From Haloquadratum walsbyi C23 (GTDB lineage: Archaea; Halobacteriota; Halobacteria; Halobacteriales; Haloferacaceae), in assembly GCF_000237865.1 (NCBI RefSeq), contig NC_017459.1:1860001-1892000 (forward strand): DNA of 32,000 bases, written 5' to 3'. Of the stretch, positions 15,281-26,537 are shown one piece after another. Each line of letters starts with the position of its first letter. Within the stretch, counting starts at the first letter, position 1. The position numbers and the translations under genes were made by a program. The notes under the pieces are model-generated. The model had not been told where the DNA came from, made no database searches, and saw nothing but the letters and a program-made list of their open reading frames with translations.

Positions 15281-15920
15281 TTGACATCCTCTCGCGCCTG
15301 AAGACGCCGGAATCTCACGACATTACCTATTGTTGAAACTTGAACAAGTCAGTTTCCTTGTCAAACAGGTACGTCGATAGCTGTGCCGACTAGCCGTTAC
15401 TCCTGTCATCGCCATCCATGGCGAGACTCGGGGATACTTGTTATCAAATGTTCTCAGCACCGTTCACATAATCATTCGTAACCAATTTACACGCATATAG
15501 TGAATAATAATTGTGGGTTGTTGTGAACCTGCCTCGGGGTCACATCAATATCAAAGCCCCGAGACTTCCTGCTTTTTCGACAGAACTGACAGACCCACTC
15601 TCACTGAGAGAGTCGTTTCAGAGCGGTTCCGGTCTCTACAGATCGTTTAAAAATCGAAGATTTTCGTGATCACGAGATGCTTCGTCTCTCGGATGATGTT
15701 GATTTGGAACGCCCCCATCCCTCTCTGAGTTGGACAGTGCGTGGTGTCCGACCGCCCGTGTGATGAGACTTTCAGTCAGACACGCTGACAATCACCAACC
15801 ATTCTAAATATTACGGGTCAATTAGCGGTGTCGGCTTCATCTGGGGTCAAGCCCTAAGACAGTCGCCTTGACAATCTGTATCATTAAATGGATTTTGAGA
15901 CACTTGATTTGTAACATATA
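15281..15920 (-). pseudogene. Degenerate IS1341-type TnpB (IS200/IS605 orfB) pseudogene, 3' part plus right-end hairpin
   Basis: My minus-strand translation gives GFDIDVTPRQ (compare the VDPxYTSQ block), then LFTICV*IGYE (a zinc-finger remnant, F.C..CGYE), then NDYVNGAENI (15447-15476; RuvC-III motif ADxNGAxNI). These are broken by stops and frameshifts. The element ends with a hairpin plus AGGATGTCAAA (complement of 15281-15310). The region has no ORF of 60 aa or more. Confidence 0.5.
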
Positions 15921-15982
15921 GCTGAGATGCTGTCGCGTTCTGAGTATATAAAAACGGCGTGAGCCGTTAGTGACGGCCCGTA

Positions 15983-17224
15983 ATGTCTGTGCAATTTGAT
16001 TCAGCAAACAGGCCGTCAGAAGACGTAACGGACGCCTCTAATATCAATTCTACTGATCTCGTCGCTGACGAACTGTACTCGCTGCTCGACGAAGTCGACA
16101 GCGAGTCGATTGCCGATGAGTTCAAGATTGGGCTCCATTCCGACAAACATGACTTCACGAACCACGTCAAGACGGTTGTTCGTGAGGGTCTTGACCCCTC
16201 CAGCTCACTCGCTGAACTTGAGGATAAAACCATTGTCGACGACTCACTCGAACACATGCCTAAATCACGGTTTTCAGAACTCACGAACGACCGCGACTAC
16301 CGTGCGGTCGTTCGTCTCCTATTCGAGTTACTGCACACGCCACAGTTGTATCATCAACGTGGAGTTCAACGAAAACGACTGGGGTGGATGACACGAGGTG
16401 TTGTCGCTGTTGATGCCACAAACCTCGAACTTACGCGCTCTGTTGTCGTCTCAGACGAGTTCGTCGGAGACGATGAAGACATCTACGAGATAGACACGGA
16501 TGGCGGAGGAGTTGAGCTTCACTGTGCCGCACGTGTAGACGGCAAACACAAGCATCCGCTTGGTGCAACTGTCACAGAAGGCGATACCCACGAAAGCCCG
16601 CAGTTCGATCTCCTTGAAGACGATGTCGAGGTCTTCGCAGACCTCGACTCGGTCATCTGGACGTTTGACCGTGCATACACGCGATATCTACGGTTCTGTG
16701 AGATCAAGCACAGTGACAATGATTTTGTCACACTGATGTACTCAGACGCTCGATTTGAACTCATTGAGACACTCGAAGAGTTTGAAGTCAGCATTACTCC
16801 CGAGAGAGGCGCTCAGCCAAGGGATTCTGCTGACGAATCGACACGGCAGGTTCGTGATGAGCGAATTGAGTTAGCCGAGACTGGTGAGGAGTTTCGTCGG
16901 ATTGTTCTGAACGCGCCAGATGGAGAAGAGATCGAGTACCTGACGACGCTGGCGTCGTCAGCGTACGACCCTATCGATGTGATCAGTATCTACACGCTTC
17001 GAACTTGCATCGAGATTCTGTTTCGGGAGCTGAAGCAGTATCTCAACATCGAGAACTTTCACTCGAAATCGCTGAACGGCGTCTTGTTCGAGCTGTTCTG
17101 TGCGCTGATTGGCTACGTGCTTGTCGAGTGGTTCCGCCAGTGCCACCCAGTCAAGGGTGGCATGGCGCGTGCAATTCAACAAGTCCGGACCTTCTGGAAT
17201 AAGACGCTGGATACGTTCGGCTGA
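15983..17224 (+). CDS. IS4-family DDE transposase
   Basis: The 413-aa ORF has DDE-type blocks (VAVDATN, WTFDRAY) and the IS4 Y-(2)-R-(3)-E-(6)-K signature YTLRTCIEILFRELK. Its codon usage is more GC-rich than the flanking host DNA. Confidence 0.85.
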   Translation: MSVQFDSANRPSEDVTDASNINSTDLVADELYSLLDEVDSESIADEFKIGLHSDKHDFTNHVKTVVREGLDPSSSLAELEDKTIVDDSLEHMPKSRFSELTNDRDYRAVVRLLFELLHTPQLYHQRGVQRKRLGWMTRGVVAVDATNLELTRSVVVSDEFVGDDEDIYEIDTDGGGVELHCAARVDGKHKHPLGATVTEGDTHESPQFDLLEDDVEVFADLDSVIWTFDRAYTRYLRFCEIKHSDNDFVTLMYSDARFELIETLEEFEVSITPERGAQPRDSADESTRQVRDERIELAETGEEFRRIVLNAPDGEEIEYLTTLASSAYDPIDVISIYTLRTCIEILFRELKQYLNIENFHSKSLNGVLFELFCALIGYVLVEWFRQCHPVKGGMARAIQQVRTFWNKTLDTFG

Positions 17225-17428
17225 TTACCACTCAATCACCGGTGACAGCCGTCGCCCGCCAGCGACGGCTGTCGCCCGACCCGTGATTTTCCTCTTCTAT
17301 GACCCTGAGACGCCGTTTCTCTCGGTCCAACATCTGGTTCATTGGCAGCTTTTCGGAGCTGAACACTCTCGACAATCCTGATCCAGCTACTCTCCGAGAG
17401 ATTGATTTCTCCGGGGCTTTATTAACTC

Positions 17429-18715
17429 ACTCGGCTCTGCACGTTTAAATAGGGGCGTGATGTAGGCAGCATTGAAACTTGATGCTGCCGATTACGGATT
17501 TCCTCTCGTGCACCGACGTGCTGGATGAATTCGACTCGCTATCATATCATCAAACGACTCACGCCAAAACGTACGTGACAGGTCTTGCTGCGGGCCGCAG
17601 CAAGACTGTAACCGGAATTGCACGAGAGGTCCTTCCTGCCGGAAGTGACCGAGCACTCAACAAGTTCATCACCGAATACGATTGGGATGAGGATCAGCTC
17701 AATCACGAGCGGTTAGAGGAACTGCAAAAACACGGAGAGACACGCTGGTCACAAAACGGCTATATCGTTATTGACGATTCAGTCATCCAGCGAACCGGGA
17801 AGTCCCTTCCCGGTGCTGGAGAGTTCTACGATCACTCTGAGGGTGAGCCTGTTTGGGGACAGAACCTCGTCTACGCGTTCTATACCGATGATAAAACGTC
17901 CTATCCACTTGCTTTTCGCCAGTACGAGAAGGTCGACGACGAGGACGAGGAAGACGAACAGGAGACAAAATACGACCTCGCACGAGAGATAATCACGGAA
18001 TTAGAAGAAGAGGTAGGTGTGCCTGCGGGCACCTACCTCTTCGATGCATGGTTTGCTCATGACTCCGGTCTGATCGAACACGTCGAATCACACGGCAAGG
18101 ACTGGATTGGACCACTACGGGGCAACCGACAGGTGACCTACGCGAACAAAGAGAGACGCGTCGATGCGCTCGAAGAGTGCATCGACAAGGAAGAGCGAGA
18201 AGTTGACGGTGAAACGTACAAAATTTGGACTAAGACAGTCCCTGTCTCGAAATTAGGTGAAGTTCGGCTGGTAATCACAGAGAAGGTTACCGATGAGGAC
18301 AAAGAGAATCCAGTAAAGTATCTTGCGACGAGCAAGATTGACGCGCCTTCGGCACACATTATTCGGAGCTATTCGTACAGATGGCGAGTAGAGACATTCT
18401 TCGAGGACTCGAAAGAGGATCTTGGCTTAGGAGACTGCGAGGTTCGTGATTCTGACGGTGCCAGTCGTCACTGGCACCTTCAGATGCTGGCCTACAGCCT
18501 TCTTCGGCTTGGTCCGGAATCGAGCGCCTCGGAGCGACTTGTCTCGAAAGCCTCGTCGCTCCGATCACAACTCGAACACGGTCTCAAGGAGACGATCTAC
18601 AACATGTTTTCCTGGGTGCGCGATCAACCAGACCGCGATCTCGATGGACTGATGGAAGACATTGACCACCTCTTTCTCCATTCTGAGGGTAGTTTATAAA
18701 CGTGCAGAGTCGAGT
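17429..18715 (+). mobile_element. IS4/IS701-like insertion sequence (1287 bp) nested inside the IS at 15931-18731
   Basis: The terminal inverted repeats are ACTCGGCTCTGCACGTTTA (17429-) and ACTCGACTCTGCACGTTTA (reverse complement of the right end, -18715). A 5-bp direct repeat AACTC flanks the element at 17424-17428 and 18716-18720. Confidence 0.8.
17482..18699 (+). CDS. IS4-superfamily (IS701/ISH-type) DDE transposase
   Basis: The 405-aa ORF runs from the ATG at 17482 (the track start at 17479 is a TTG). It has the blocks YIVIDDS and YLFDAWFA plus the YREK signature YSYRWRVETFFEDSK. Confidence 0.85.
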   Translation: MLPITDFLSCTDVLDEFDSLSYHQTTHAKTYVTGLAAGRSKTVTGIAREVLPAGSDRALNKFITEYDWDEDQLNHERLEELQKHGETRWSQNGYIVIDDSVIQRTGKSLPGAGEFYDHSEGEPVWGQNLVYAFYTDDKTSYPLAFRQYEKVDDEDEEDEQETKYDLAREIITELEEEVGVPAGTYLFDAWFAHDSGLIEHVESHGKDWIGPLRGNRQVTYANKERRVDALEECIDKEEREVDGETYKIWTKTVPVSKLGEVRLVITEKVTDEDKENPVKYLATSKIDAPSAHIIRSYSYRWRVETFFEDSKEDLGLGDCEVRDSDGASRHWHLQMLAYSLLRLGPESSASERLVSKASSLRSQLEHGLKETIYNMFSWVRDQPDRDLDGLMEDIDHLFLHSEGSL

Positions 18716-18814
18716 AACTCAGAACGCGACAGCTGAGATGCGTCAATCTCAGGTGTATTATAATTTGATGATTGTGACTTTCCCACAATCCACTTACTGT
18801 TTGGGAGCATACAA

Positions 18815-20629: not shown

Positions 20630-20887
20630 CTATGAACTACTGACCACACGCCGAGTGACTACACCGCTGACTTGTGTATCGTAGTCGTTCTTGCTGTCGA
20701 TTATAGTACCCGGGTTATCGCTCCAGCCGTATTTTGCGACGTGTTGTGCTGCTTGGCGGAACTGATCGAACGTTTCATTAGGGAGACCTTCATCCTCGAG
20801 GCGAGACTTGTAGGTTTTATTTGACAGTTCCGGTTCAGCACGTATTTCTACTGTAATGCCTGTATTATCTAAACCTACCTTACTCAT
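20630..20887 (-). CDS. Small hypothetical protein (85 aa)
   Basis: It has an ATG start, an acidic composition consistent with haloarchaeal coding sequence, and no competing ORF. I recognise no family. Confidence 0.45.
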   Translation of the reverse strand: MSKVGLDNTGITVEIRAEPELSNKTYKSRLEDEGLPNETFDQFRQAAQHVAKYGWSDNPGTIIDSKNDYDTQVSGVVTRRVVSSS

Positions 20888-20962
20888 ATTGGAGAGTCAG
20901 AGAGTCTATTCATTGTGGTTTGTTGCCGTATTGTCGGCTTCCTCCCACACACGGCTAAAGCC

Positions 20963-21221
20963 CTGTCTCTTACCCACAACTCGAGTCAGGATTTTAGCGG
21001 AACGGGATCGGGATCGGCGAGCACGACTGAAATCCTCGGTATCTACAGTTTCAGCACCTCTTTGGAACAATTGTAGTGAGCTTGATTACCGGCGTTCTGT
21101 CACCCCCACAGCCGATATCACTATTTGAATCGCTTCTCGCCTCGATTTTTTGATTCAAAATACCTCTGAGAGCGTCTGAAACGTCCGGTTACGACTCCAC
21201 GAACTTATGGGTAAGAGACAG
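20963..21221 (+). mobile_element. MITE copy 1 (259 bp) with IS4/Tn5-like termini
   Basis: The terminal inverted repeats are CTGTCTCTTACCCACAA (20963-20979) and the complement of TTATGGGTAAGAGACAG (21205-21221), 16/17 identical. A perfect 10-bp direct repeat GGCTAAAGCC flanks it at 20953-20962 and 21222-21231. There is no credible coding capacity. A second copy lies at 23741-23981. Confidence 0.7.
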
Positions 21222-21371
21222 GGCTAAAGCCGAAGCCGTGGGTTTTCCGCCTTGCAATTCTATGAAATCAATATCTTTTTTGATCAAATCAAATCACTCA
21301 GTATTAATTATCCAGCTATCTGTAACTGTGACCGACAACCCAATACAGATGTAGAACAGAATGTGCATGCT

Positions 21372-21554
21372 ATGGCAGATGAAGCCTATCAGATTACGCT
21401 AGCCGAACCGCATGAAATTACAGATGGCGATCAGAGGACAATCACCGTCTCAGGGTATGAAGATGTTGGGAGCATGTTCATGCTTGAGTTAACTGACGGC
21501 GGAATTCGCTCTATTGGCAAGCAATTGATTGAAGATGTGACACCAATTGAATAA
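21372..21554 (+). CDS. Small acidic hypothetical protein (60 aa)
   Basis: The track ORF (21252) starts at a TTG inside the repeat flank, so I prefer the ATG at 21372. The product is MADEAYQITLAEPHEITDGDQRTITVSGYEDVGSMFMLELTDGGIRSIGKQLIEDVTPIE. Its composition is haloarchaeal-like, and I recognise no family. Confidence 0.4.
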   Translation: MADEAYQITLAEPHEITDGDQRTITVSGYEDVGSMFMLELTDGGIRSIGKQLIEDVTPIE

Positions 21555-21680
21555 GACATCTGCTGTCTCGATTGTTTGTATTCATCGACTGCGTTGATTC
21601 GACTCTACATTGAAATCCCTATCAGATATCTGTTCACTATATGGCAAACATTCGTTTGTCTGCGGTGAATATCTCACGTG

Positions 21681-22142
21681 ATGACAGCTGATCAATACGA
21701 CACCGAGACAATGACAGAGCAAAGCGTTGATCCGACCACCATCTCCGCAATTAGTGGGTTTGTCGGGACAATCACAGGGTTAAAACGAGGCGGTCCCGGC
21801 GGAGCGATTATTGGTGGGCTTGTTGGTGGGACGATTGGATATGTTGTTGGTGCGGGCACAACAGCGCAATCTGAAACGGATACAGATACAGATACAGATA
21901 CAAATACCAGTACCGATGCGGATGCACATTCGGATATGAATGCTGACGCTGGATCTGACTCTGAGACACCATCCGACACAAGCACCGGTCCGGTTGATAT
22001 CACGATTGATGATAATAACACTGATGAGACATCATCGGAGAGGACAACAGACCACAATGATCAATCTAAAGCCAATGAGAGCGAATCTAAAGAAAGCGAT
22101 CCAACAGAAGAATCACAGGGGACAACAGAAGATGCTGAGTGA
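21681..22142 (+). CDS. Glycine-zipper membrane-anchored protein with a long acidic Thr/Asp/Ser-rich tail
   Basis: The segment ISGFVGTITGLKRGGPGGAIIGGLVGGTIGYVVGAG is a GxxxG-rich glycine-zipper helix pair. An acidic low-complexity tail (TDTDTDTDTNTSTDADAHSD...) follows. The ATG is at 21681 and the track start is a GTG at 21678. Confidence 0.55.
   Translation: MTADQYDTETMTEQSVDPTTISAISGFVGTITGLKRGGPGGAIIGGLVGGTIGYVVGAGTTAQSETDTDTDTDTNTSTDADAHSDMNADAGSDSETPSDTSTGPVDITIDDNNTDETSSERTTDHNDQSKANESESKESDPTEESQGTTEDAE
21879..21902 (+). repeat. Hexanucleotide microsatellite (GATACA)x4 inside the glycine-zipper gene, encoding (DT)n
   Basis: Direct reading gives GATACAGATACAGATACAGATACA. Confidence 0.9.
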
Positions 22143-22170
22143 GTTTTGATGCAATAACAGATAATATCAA

Positions 22171-23172
22171 CGCTCTTCTGAAGCAGATTGTTGGTCGGGT
22201 AAAGCTATCGCCGTGAAAGCGTAGCGGGCAAGAGTGACGCGACGCGTCACCTGAACGCAATGTTCCCATTTGAATTGCTGAGCTCAGAGGCGAGCGCCGC
22301 GAACCTGCTGGAGCAGGTTCGCTGGCGAGAGGGCCTCTGTTGCCCGCGCTGCCAGTCTGAGTCGGTAATCAAACACGGCAGCTATCGAGAGTATCAACGG
22401 TACCTGTGTAAGGATTGCGACCGCACGTTCAACGACAAAACCGGCACGATTTTTGCGCACGCGAAGATCGGCCTCGATAAGCTGTTGTTCGCGTTCTACT
22501 CGTTCCTCCGGTTCAACACGAGTATCCGCCAGTTAGACGCTGAAATTGACGTTTCGTATCGCTCGCTTCACCGGCGCGTCGAGCAGTTCGCCAGAACGCT
22601 CGACGCGCCAACAATCGATCTCGTTGGACCGGTCGAGATCGACGAGTTCTATGTCTCTGCTGGGAAGAAAGGTCGCGAGCGCGATCGAGAGTCGCGCTCG
22701 CGTGCCCTCTCGAAACGCGGACGAGGAACGTATGAGGGTGATAAACCGCCAGTGTTCACGCTCGTTGATCGGGGCAGCGGTCAGCGATACGTCGTCCCAG
22801 CGAAATCCGCCGATGAAACGACCGTGCGACTCCTTCTCGACAACCACGAGAAGGAGTCGCTGAGCATCTATACTGACGGATTTCGTGCCTACGATCCACT
22901 CGACAATGATGAGAGCTTCCACCGAGAATCAGTAATTCACGGTGACGGCGAGTACGTTGATGGAGACGCACATGTGAACACGTGCGAGAGCCACGCGTCG
23001 CTGGCGCGACGGTGGCTCTCGCCGCATCGAGGCGTCTCAAAGGACAAACTGACAGCATATCTCAGGCCGTTCCAACTTCGGCGACGAATCCTCCGCAAAC
23101 CGGGACAAGAAGCACTGAAACAGATTATCCGAGAAGTTCTCTGACTCACCAACAATGTACTTCACAAGAGCG
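22171..23172 (+). mobile_element. IS1595-family insertion sequence (ISH4-group-like), 1002 bp, apparently intact
   Basis: The terminal inverted repeats are CGCTCTTCTGAAGCAGATTGTTGGT (22171-) and CGCTCTTGTGAAGTACATTGTTGGT (reverse complement of the right end), 22/25 identical. They are flanked by the direct repeat TAATATCA(A) at 22162-22170 and 23173-23181. Confidence 0.85.
22260..23144 (+). CDS. IS1595-family (ISXO2-like DDE) transposase
   Basis: The 294-aa uninterrupted ORF has an N-terminal zinc ribbon (CCPRCQS...CKDCDRTFNDKTGTIF), then EIDEFYVSAGKKGR, GDKPPVFTLVDR, IYTDGFRAY and GDAHVNTCES blocks. These are collinear with the frameshifted copy at 13014-13897. Confidence 0.9.
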   Translation: MFPFELLSSEASAANLLEQVRWREGLCCPRCQSESVIKHGSYREYQRYLCKDCDRTFNDKTGTIFAHAKIGLDKLLFAFYSFLRFNTSIRQLDAEIDVSYRSLHRRVEQFARTLDAPTIDLVGPVEIDEFYVSAGKKGRERDRESRSRALSKRGRGTYEGDKPPVFTLVDRGSGQRYVVPAKSADETTVRLLLDNHEKESLSIYTDGFRAYDPLDNDESFHRESVIHGDGEYVDGDAHVNTCESHASLARRWLSPHRGVSKDKLTAYLRPFQLRRRILRKPGQEALKQIIREVL

Positions 23173-23223
23173 TAATATCAAAACAGATAAATATCATAAT
23201 CAAATCAAGAGATTTACATTGAA

Positions 23224-23740
<517 letters not shown>

Positions 23741-23981
23741 CTGTCTCTTACCTACAAATCGAGTCGCTGCTGAGGTCAGTAAACCGGTTGAAATCTCGAT
23801 ATCTACAGATTTAATATCTCTTTGGAACAATTATAGTGGAGTTGATTACCGGCGTTCTGTAACCCCTACAGCCGATATCACTGTCTGAATCGCTTCTCGC
23901 CTCGATTTTTTAGTTCAAAATACCTCTGAGAGCGTCTGAAACGTCCGGTTACGACTCCACGAACTTGTGGGTAAGAGACAG
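23741..23981 (+). mobile_element. MITE copy 2 (241 bp), same family and orientation as 20963-21221
   Basis: The termini are CTGTCTCTTACCTACAA (23741-23757) and TTGTGGGTAAGAGACAG (23965-23981). The right two-thirds is near-identical to copy 1, while the left-central part diverges but keeps hairpin potential. The flanks differ (CCCTCAAGGA on the left, GGCTAAAGCC on the right), so this copy has no clean TSD. Confidence 0.7.
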
Positions 23982-24108
23982 GGCTAAAGCCGTGGGTTTC
24001 CGCCTCGCAATTCTATGAATACACGGCTACGACGTCCGGATCTTCTCAGTCACATTCAACTGAGGATCACTGAGAGTACTGTGATGAGAAAATTCATGAT
24101 GCCAACCC

Positions 24109-25239: not shown

Positions 25240-25420
25240 CAAAACAGGTATTTGTCGGTGATGGATAAGACGGTGACGACCAAAACGGATGTGAATTTCT
25301 GAATGAAATACTCATCCAATAAGATATCAAGACGAGTGTGTCGATAATAAACGTGATCTGAAGCTGCTTCACAATTTAATCCGACTCGAACTATAACATA
25401 TTATTATATCTTTTAGCTGA

Positions 25421-25508
25421 ATACAGGCGCTAAGCCCCCTCCCTCAAGGAGCACCGCAGTCCGCGCGAGCGGACAAGGAGCGCAGTAGGGAGAAGGGGAT
25501 ACAGCGCC
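25421..25508. repeat. GC-rich palindromic element, resembling a TnpB 3' end or a REP-like repeat
   Basis: It carries the arm AAGCCCCCTCCCTCAAGGAGC (..APSLKE in one frame), a perfect hairpin GTCCGC-GCGA-GCGGAC (25459-25474) and the opposing arm GGAGCGCAGTAGGGAGAAGGGG. It is bracketed by ATACAGGCGC and ATACAGCGCC. Confidence 0.4.
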
Positions 25509-25749
25509 ATCATCATCTGGTTGTACACTGTGCGTCGGCAGACTCACAGACCTATGTAAGCAGTTATATTGTCGGACGCCAGACTAAAGAGTAAGATGGG
25601 CATTTTGACCTGTCGGCTTTGATTCGCTCGTCGTTCCATATAGCACTCCGTGAAACATTTTGAACCATCGGTTCTACGCAACAGTATCAGCAGCTACTCT
25701 ATGACAAGATTTTGGATTGAATTCCTCAATAAGTATTCAGGAGCACTAT

Positions 25750-26147: not shown

Positions 26148-26537
26148 ATGGTTGATGCAAATGTTGGGAGAACACTTGAGACAATGAAACCAAATCCGGT
26201 ATGGGACGCTAATTCATGGTCAGATACCGTAGCCGCATTTAGTGATGATACTTTAATAATCCGAGTGTGGGGTGGTGATTGGTGTGATGACTGCCGGAGA
26301 CAATTACCAGATTTTGCAGCCGCGATTAACGCTGCTGATATCCCGAATAAACGAGTTCATGAATATTCCGTTGAAAAAAATGCTGATGGAGAAAAATATG
26401 GACCGAGTGTCAAAGAATACGGAATTAATCGGATTCCAACAGTTGTCATCGAACGAGAAGATGAGGAAGTGGCACGATTTGTTGAAACTGAATCAGTCCC
26501 TATCGCGGTGTTTCTCGCTGAGCAACTCACCGAGTGA
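26148..26537 (+). CDS. Thioredoxin-fold protein (WCxxC active site)
   Basis: The active site reads VWGGDWCDDCRRQLP, and a cis-Pro region (NRIPTVVI) is typical of thioredoxin-like proteins. The protein is 129 aa. Confidence 0.8.
   Translation: MVDANVGRTLETMKPNPVWDANSWSDTVAAFSDDTLIIRVWGGDWCDDCRRQLPDFAAAINAADIPNKRVHEYSVEKNADGEKYGPSVKEYGINRIPTVVIEREDEEVARFVETESVPIAVFLAEQLTE

Follow-up and report, generated by a model that had tools for sequence, protein, structure and literature searches.

What are the two repeats of about 250 bp that lie close together in the chromosome of Haloquadratum walsbyi C23, and is there selection on their internal structure? Both are found in a 32,000-nt stretch of that chromosome (positions 1,860,001–1,892,000), which we analysed as a whole and refer to as the window. 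A first-pass annotation, made from the sequence alone, had described them as copies of a MITE (miniature inverted-repeat transposable element) with Tn5-like ends, and had read the differences between them as a hint of selected hairpins. We find that both are almost certainly HqIRS35 (Duanwu), a non-coding H. walsbyi MITE with ends like those of the insertion sequence (IS) ISHwa2, and that it is probably moved by ISHwa2 transposase acting in trans. The copies, hereafter copy 1 and copy 2, are 259 and 241 bp long and lie in direct orientation on the plus strand at 20963–21221 and 23741–23981.

The window can be placed directly on a published comparison of C23 with strain HBSQ001 (Dyall-Smith et al., 2011; PMC3119063), from whose Table S5 coordinates it is offset by 1,860,000, and the differences between the two strains in the window agree with that table base for base. 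DNA identity to HBSQ001 is 98–99% in the common blocks, a 129-aa protein (26148–26537) is encoded in identical form in HBSQ001 (AM180088.1), and the window has a G+C content of 46–52% and very acidic open reading frames (ORFs). Region 434 of Table S5 is entered as INSERT_MITE, C23 1880963–1881221, 259 bp, overlap 10, HqIRS35; since these coordinates are window positions 20963–21221, copy 1 has been individually catalogued. Table S8 of the same paper lists HqIRS35 as a MITE of 241–266 bp with inverted terminal repeats matching at 16/19, a target duplication of 10 and ISHwa2 as the parent transposon, present 34 times in C23 and 36 times in HBSQ001, five of the insertions in either strain being specific to it, and equates the element with the 'Duanwu' of Chen et al. 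2009 (Gene 436:1), elsewhere given as 257 bp (PMC3184786). Coordinates, lengths, inverted repeats, 10-bp duplication and ISHwa2 partner all agree between the published element and ours. The element and copy 1 itself are thus already published; this is an ordinary mobile element that says nothing new about H. walsbyi C23. Our additions to the record are a target consensus, the dyad-centred position of the insertions, an explanation of the length classes by hexamer number, and relatives from other genera.

The boundaries of copy 1 were set by its empty site. HBSQ001 has an uninterrupted sequence, ...CCCACACACGGCTAAAGCCGAAGCCGTGGG..., with one GGCTAAAGCC, while C23 has 259 bp more and a second GGCTAAAGCC, so that the two 10-bp copies flanking the element (20953–20962 on the left, 21222–21231 on the right) form a true target-site duplication, as the first-pass annotation had supposed, and the insertion is specific to C23. 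At 16 other unique sites, duplications matching at 9/10 or better are of unrelated sequence, for example GTGTACATAT, GTCTATACAT, CCCTTCAGAG and GGCTGAAGCC. The element therefore runs from CTGTCTC to GAGACAG, with a 10-bp duplication. Its left 19-bp end, CTGTCTCTTACCCACAACT (20963–20981, plus strand), is a putative transposase-binding end and matches the right end (21203–21221, minus strand), which reads CTGTCTCTTACCCATAAGT as its reverse complement, at 17/19 positions, so the inverted repeats of the earlier description stand as well. The 32-kb window contains four exact occurrences of the 12-mer CTGTCTCTTACC, all of them at the ends of the two elements. The wider span first assigned to the element, 20935–21266, does hold the MITE; the rest of it belongs to a palindromic host element described below. 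We also considered and rejected a Nextera adapter artefact: the ends differ from the adapter end, which we take to be CTGTCTCTTATACACATCT, the genome is finished, and the duplications are present.

The next question was which transposase these ends belong to. Searches by tblastn found no partner transposase in the window or in the H. walsbyi-derived metagenome loci to which they were applied, but matched ISHwa2-type genes in loci of other haloarchaeal genera. ISHwa2 itself is present in HBSQ001 (locus L189:5948–7615), in keeping with the earlier expectation that the autonomous partner lay outside the window. There it is 1668 bp long, with ends CTGTCTCTTACCCACAAGTC and CTGTCTCTTACCCATAACTC and a perfect 10-bp duplication, GTTTTGATGC, and a MITE copy lies about 1 kb away; the 261-bp copy in this locus (L189:8596–8856) is 93% identical to copy 1. 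The left end of copy 1 matches the ISHwa2 left end CTGTCTCTTACCCACAAGTC at 19/20 positions, and its right end matches ISHwa2-type right ends, which read CTGTCTCTTACCCATAAGT in loci L185 and L090 and CTGTCTCTTACCCATAACT in HBSQ001. MITE and IS thus share their terminal 19–20 bp, the 10-bp duplication and a preference for palindromic sites, but the IS is far longer and encodes a transposase of 476 aa, and the interior of the MITE is unrelated to it, the BLAST matches being limited to the terminal 17–20 bases.

That transposase, with an N-terminal DNA-binding domain and a DDE domain, is homologous over its full length to the transposase of IS50/Tn5 from E. coli (PDB 1MUS/1MUH; E = 8e-35, residues 24–471). 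A relative from Halococcus thailandensis, 76% identical, matches the Pfam families Tnp_DNA_bind (PF14706) and DDE_Tnp_1 (PF01609) and the NCBIfam family transpos_IS4_3, and its deposited 322-aa version carries the annotation 'Tn5-type transposase ISHwa2'. Compared with the outside end of Tn5, CTGACTCTTATACACAAGT (PMC2566895), the ISHwa2 left end, CTGTCTCTTACCCACAAGT, agrees at 16/19 positions, and the left and right ends of copy 1 agree at 15/19 and 16/19. The likeness to the IS50/Tn5 outside end, noted in the first pass, is therefore real, and the IS4-family mobiliser proposed on that ground would be a Tn5-type enzyme. Unlike IS50/Tn5, ISHwa2 has an archaeal host and a 10-bp duplication. Tn5 is known for a 9-bp target duplication, whereas we found 10 bp for both MITE and IS, which is a variant within the IS50/Tn5 group and does not exclude ISHwa2 from the IS4 family. 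To our knowledge, no MITE partner has been described for IS50. ISHwa2 has a reported target duplication of 10–11 (PMC3119063), and its transposase gene is listed as highly expressed in the metatranscriptome of a natural population (PMC9684190).

How typical are the two copies of their family? Our end-pattern genome scan had one H. walsbyi locus among the matches listed, in the J07HQW1 assembly, with a copy 91% identical to copy 1. Further copies were gathered by a metagenome scan with an internal 19-mer, which yielded 60 contigs; as the 19-mer region is invariant by ascertainment, it was left out of the variability tests. Together, the metagenome contigs and the window gave 42 distinct full-length copies of 240–266 bp. 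The ends of the terminal inverted repeats are conserved in 42/42, and copy 1 is 90–96% identical to 40 others. The judgement that the element has no coding capacity held throughout: no copy of the 42 has a reading frame open through the whole element (the median longest stop-free stretch is 52 codons), 1- and 2-base indels are frequent among them, and the ORF that overlaps the element has no Pfam match. Length classes of 254, 260 and 266 bp correspond to one, two and three GGGATC hexamers (alignment columns 43–59), and copy 1 carries two (21004–21015, plus strand). Locus L165 has two copies head to tail (7–147 and 158–411), 10 bp apart (GTCTTTAGCC), an arrangement that a second insertion into or beside the duplicated target of the first copy would produce.

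Copy 2 differs from copy 1 in age and history. It is common to C23 and HBSQ001, and its orthologues (L130, L160 and L169) have identical flanks; the 241-bp class consists of copy 2 and these orthologues, and is thus one locus only in our sample. Over the right-hand ~190 bp the two copies are 91% identical, while the left ~70 bp differ by a 16–22-nt indel and many substitutions. Neither the 16-nt insert nor the hexamers are found in copy 2, a trait that it shares with homologous MITEs of Halorubrum, Halobellus and Halovenus, and it outscores copy 1 in alignments with them. Copy 2 is best read as an old copy of ancestral type, and copy 1 is a member of a younger, expanded subfamily; the differences between them arise because the two subfamilies differ in age. 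Copy 2 has no target duplication, as its left flank, CCCTCAAGGA, matches GGCTAAAGCC at only 5/10 positions. This is because the left flank (GGAAGCCCCACCCTCAAGGA, 23721–23740) is half of a different palindrome, which points to decay or rearrangement of the flanks. To the right, GGCTAAAGCC and about 35 further bases directly follow the element, in a PATE-like sequence (GGCTAAAGCCGTGGGTTTCCGCCTCGCAATTCTATGAA, 23982–24019) of the same family as 21222–21266, whose motif recurs in both orientations beside other copies (L139, L150). A 40-nt inverted repeat, 75% complementary, brackets copy 2 and a PALP-family gene with arms 2 kb apart (23391–23430 and 25413–25452), and both arms hold CCTCAAGGA-type palindrome halves like that of the left flank of copy 2.

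Sequence shared by the flanks of both copies raised the question of what copy 1 had inserted into. In HBSQ001 the two sides of its insertion site (about 20931–20962 and 21222–21266) join up, and together they fold into a hairpin that has GGCTAAAGCC on or close to its tip. Copy 1 thus splits a small, palindrome-bearing host element of IS605-type or PATE-like character, whose left half (20931–20962, boundary approximate) is contiguous in HBSQ001 with its right half (21232–21266), the latter homologous to the right flank of copy 2. The sequence TTGTCGGCTTCCTCC... from the left half recurs beside other insertion sites (L150, L136). Other copies are accompanied, in either orientation, by TTGTCGGNTTCNTCC... 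and ...GTGGGTTTCCGCCTCGCA, and at other sites by TTGACATCCTCC. These motifs are similar to the palindromes that lie near the termini of IS605-type elements and PATEs (PMC3119063, Table S9), and 30 of 31 nested MITEs were reported to sit in IS605-type elements or PATEs (PMC3119063). The shared right flank of both copies is therefore host palindromic element and not MITE. Copy 1 also lies between two divergent small ORFs (window 20887–21252), 75 bp upstream of a minus-strand ORF of 85 aa (20630–20887), and could change the promoters of these ORFs in C23 relative to HBSQ001.

Taken as a Tn5-like cut-and-paste process, mobilisation would proceed as follows. The 19-bp ends of HqIRS35 would mimic those of ISHwa2, a 1668-bp IS4-family element, and a transposase dimer, supplied in trans by an ISHwa2 elsewhere in the chromosome, would bind and pair both MITE ends, excise the MITE and insert it with 10-bp staggered cuts. 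Target capture would prefer the roughly palindromic GnCTnnAGnC, most often at the hairpin tips of IS605-type elements or their PATE derivatives, and copy 1 would be one such insertion, which split a small PATE-like palindrome in C23 after its divergence from HBSQ001. Several points weigh against this account. Copy 2 has no duplication, and its insertion history is a reconstruction; the duplication is 10 bp and not the 9 bp of Tn5, so the details of the chemistry may not be the same; copy 1 is no more than 95.8% identical to its closest relative in the sample, and no donor copy was found among the copies sampled; and mobilisation by ISHwa2 is suggested by end identity and duplication length, that is, by sequence.

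Two other readings concern what the repeated unit is and where it came from. Since it shares its 19-bp ends and the length of its duplication with ISHwa2, the MITE might be a plain internal-deletion derivative of it. We regard this origin as very improbable, as BLAST aligns copy 1 with ISHwa2 only at bases 1–20 and 241–259, the same has been said of Haloquadratum MITEs in general (PMC3119063), and homologous MITEs of ~250 bp in other genera are unlike the interiors of their local ISs. Alternatively, the copies could belong to a larger segment that was duplicated, or the unit of repetition could really be a longer palindromic element that includes GGCTAAAGCC, given that the right flanks of both copies share ~38–45 bases including GGCTAAAGCC and that the inverted repeat can be extended to 28–33 nt. 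The probability of this is close to nil: HBSQ001 lacks exactly 259 bp plus one GGCTAAAGCC, other copies with the same ends have unrelated flanks and duplications (GTGTACATAT, GTCTATACAT, CCCTTCAGAG), and the shared flank also turns up next to other copies, in one orientation or the other, which is how a preferred target element would behave. The longer unit was rejected on the strength of the empty site and the unrelated flanks.

The first-pass annotation had also noted that substitutions between the two copies tend to keep or create stems, a hint that internal hairpins of RNA or DNA might be maintained by selection in a functional structured element. The stems named, CTGAAA/TTTCAG and CTGT/ACAG, do exist in copy 1, and the fold of copy 1 is somewhat better than that of shuffled sequences (z = -2.4 for the plus and -2.8 for the minus strand). 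In many of the 42 copies, however, these stems are broken. In the CTGAAA/TTTCAG stem, pair 71–98 is C-G in 19 copies, U-A in 4, all from one orthologous locus, and unpaired in 19, and pair 76–93 is broken in 8/42; in the CTGT/ACAG stem, pair 143–153 is G-C in 29 copies, A-U in 3 and broken in 10, and pair 142–154 is broken in 4/42. The A-U pair that copy 2 seemed to have gained is present in 6 copies and absent from 36, and the alternative AAATCT/AGATTT stem forms in only 7/42. Double changes do occur in two stem pairs (C-G to U-A in 4 copies, G-C to A-U in 3), as does a single exchange of U-A for A-U, seen in the two relatives from Halorubrum. The double changes nevertheless trace to one or two events, with four of the seven cells being the same orthologous locus, and breaks exceed compensations by 19 to 4 and 10 to 3. 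The z-scores, for their part, cover the whole element, including the 14-bp pairing of the terminal repeats that is common to any MITE.

Tests across the alignment gave the same answer. The covariation term of RNAalifold was negligible, at -0.84 kcal/mol within the species, with any double change in only 2 of 54 pairs, and at -0.03 kcal/mol across genera. The columns of the stems fall within the element's most variable stretches (columns 81–100 and 141–160) and are not more conserved than the rest: they average 3.95 substitutions per column against 2.06 for other internal columns, a difference that is not significant (p = 0.19). Columns paired by RNAalifold are less variable than unpaired ones (1.5 vs. 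2.7 substitutions, p = 0.014), but this test is circular, as the method favours conserved columns. No Rfam match was obtained over 20800–24100 even at relaxed thresholds (E ≤ 1), so that we found neither a conserved fold supported by covariation nor a described RNA family. We also examined a subterminal hairpin ~25–50 nt from the right end, which gave the impression of conservation, compensatory changes included, in Halorientalis, Halospeciosus and Salinirubellus. It failed across 17 elements of other genera, where RNAalifold gave no consensus and pair counts were no better than those of shuffles (142–217 of 500). A pairing of GATATC with GATATC that RNAalifold proposed across genera was likewise set aside as evidence of structure, because GATATC is its own reverse complement. 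There is thus no evidence for selected internal structure, which we consider highly improbable, and the pattern of pair-preserving changes seen in two copies did not survive the alignment of 42. Bacterial MITEs with roles at the RNA level (Correia, ERIC and RUP; PMC3184786, PMC10969869) are similarly short and intergenic, with terminal inverted repeats, and foldable if transcribed; unlike them, HqIRS35 has no supported conserved fold.

Having identified both repeats as HqIRS35, we asked where ISHwa2-type elements insert. Sixteen H. walsbyi sites gave the target consensus G-n-C-T-n-n-A-G-n-C, a symmetric preference that recalls the Tn5 consensus. We then pooled 25 unique sites with duplications matching at 9/10 or better, drawn from MITEs and full-length ISs both in H. 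walsbyi and in other genera. At distances 2–10, positions lying equally far from the middle of the duplication hold complementary bases in 52–84% of these sites, whereas further out the share drops to 12–36%; the insertions thus lie at the midpoints of palindromes whose arms measure ~9 bp. This dyad-centred position is seen at sites of both MITEs and full-length ISHwa2-type elements (L010, L019, L049, L065, L186, L189 and others, and 20953–20962 in the window), and the palindromes concerned are in many cases near-terminal hairpins of IS605-type elements. An IS605-type terminal motif lies within 45 nt of 13 of 52 unique sites, against an expectation of ~0.02 per 90 nt of the same loci. The target GGCTAAAGCC was also used in a plasmid of Natribaculum breve.

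One tentative interpretation, which we judge possible but rather less than probable, is that ISHwa2-family transposases, with their homologous ~250-bp MITE lineage in many haloarchaeal genera, capture targets at the dyad of hairpin-forming palindromes. Preferred targets would then be the near-terminal hairpins of IS200/IS605-type (TnpB-carrying) elements and PATE remnants. The preference may reflect recognition of symmetry or structure, or merely a consensus that such hairpins happen to satisfy, and it may follow from the palindromic sequence consensus alone. If the enzyme does read structure or symmetry, and not just GnCTnnAGnC, the targeting of one element against another would be built into a Tn5-type enzyme, and every insertion would split the hairpin at the end of an IS605-type element. 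Insertion into repeated palindromes is also a property of IS1397. IS621 likewise concentrates its insertions in hairpin-forming repeats of another family (PMC3184786), though the transposase here is a Tn5-type DDE enzyme. The SMR-A repeats of Haloquadratum, too, insert into PATE palindromes, but have neither a duplication nor a known transposase (PMC3119063). MITEs in PATEs and IS605-type elements were reported in PMC3119063; the dyad geometry, the consensus and the generality across genera were not found in the literature that we examined.

Is the pair of ISHwa2 and its MITE peculiar to Haloquadratum? In 2011, ISHwa2 was reported as essentially confined to this genus among sequenced archaea (PMC3119063), whereas it is now clearly widespread. 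Among the end-pattern matches listed, MITE-sized elements of 244–273 bp with identical ends and mostly 10-bp duplications occur in at least eight other named haloarchaeal genera. Their hosts include Halorubrum yunnanense, Halobellus salinus, Halovenus halobia, Natribaculum breve, Halorientalis, Haloglomus, Halospeciosus, Salinirubellus and several metagenome-assembled genomes (loci L002, L052, L113, L120, L003, L019, L092, L010 and others). Full-length related ISs of 1489–1663 bp were found in Halococcus, Halorubrum and metagenomes, and close relatives of the transposase in many haloarchaea and in Salinibacter ruber (62–63% identity). For some of the foreign-genus MITEs, homology to HqIRS35 extends along the entire element, at 68–74% identity. 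Fifteen elements can be aligned over their right-hand 75 nt with no gaps, and TAGATC, CGAGAGC and GAAACG each keep a set distance from the end; a hairpin common to these cross-genus MITEs was not supported. A Tn5-like IS and its MITE that insert at the centre of IS605-type hairpins in many haloarchaeal genera extend a pattern already known in outline and raise no new question, but this side result may be of interest for haloarchaeal mobile elements and for TnpB/IS605 biology.

Other mobile elements share the window with the two MITEs. The IS4-type element noted earlier at 15931, to which a 10-bp duplication had been ascribed, in fact has one of 8 bp, CTGAGATG. It spans 15930–18732 with ends CTGTCGCGTTCTGAG... 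and holds two DDE transposase ORFs (15983–17224 and 17479–18699), so that one IS is nested in or adjacent to another; Table S5 of PMC3119063 lists it as region 432, 'ISHwa9(targeted)'. The sole match in the window at the Rfam gathering score is sot0042, a Haloferax sRNA family (104.7 bits, 15290–15439, minus strand). It adjoins an IS605-type terminal motif, TTGACATCCTCTCGCGCCTGAAG (15281–15303), with no intact tnpB ORF close by, and resembles the RNA-bearing terminus of a degraded IS605-type element or PATE. Between the two MITE copies, a 1015-bp segment (22161–23175, region 438) is replaced in HBSQ001 by an unrelated segment of 544 bp; its ORF at 22260–23144 encodes an IS1595-family transposase (Pfam DDE_Tnp_IS1595 and a zinc ribbon). 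Downstream of copy 2, a 109-bp segment absent from HBSQ001 (25640–25748, region 442) is listed as the small mobile repeat HqIRS43, and HBSQ001 carries an insertion of ~650 bp (HqIRS56) at the position equivalent to 25347 (25346/25347).

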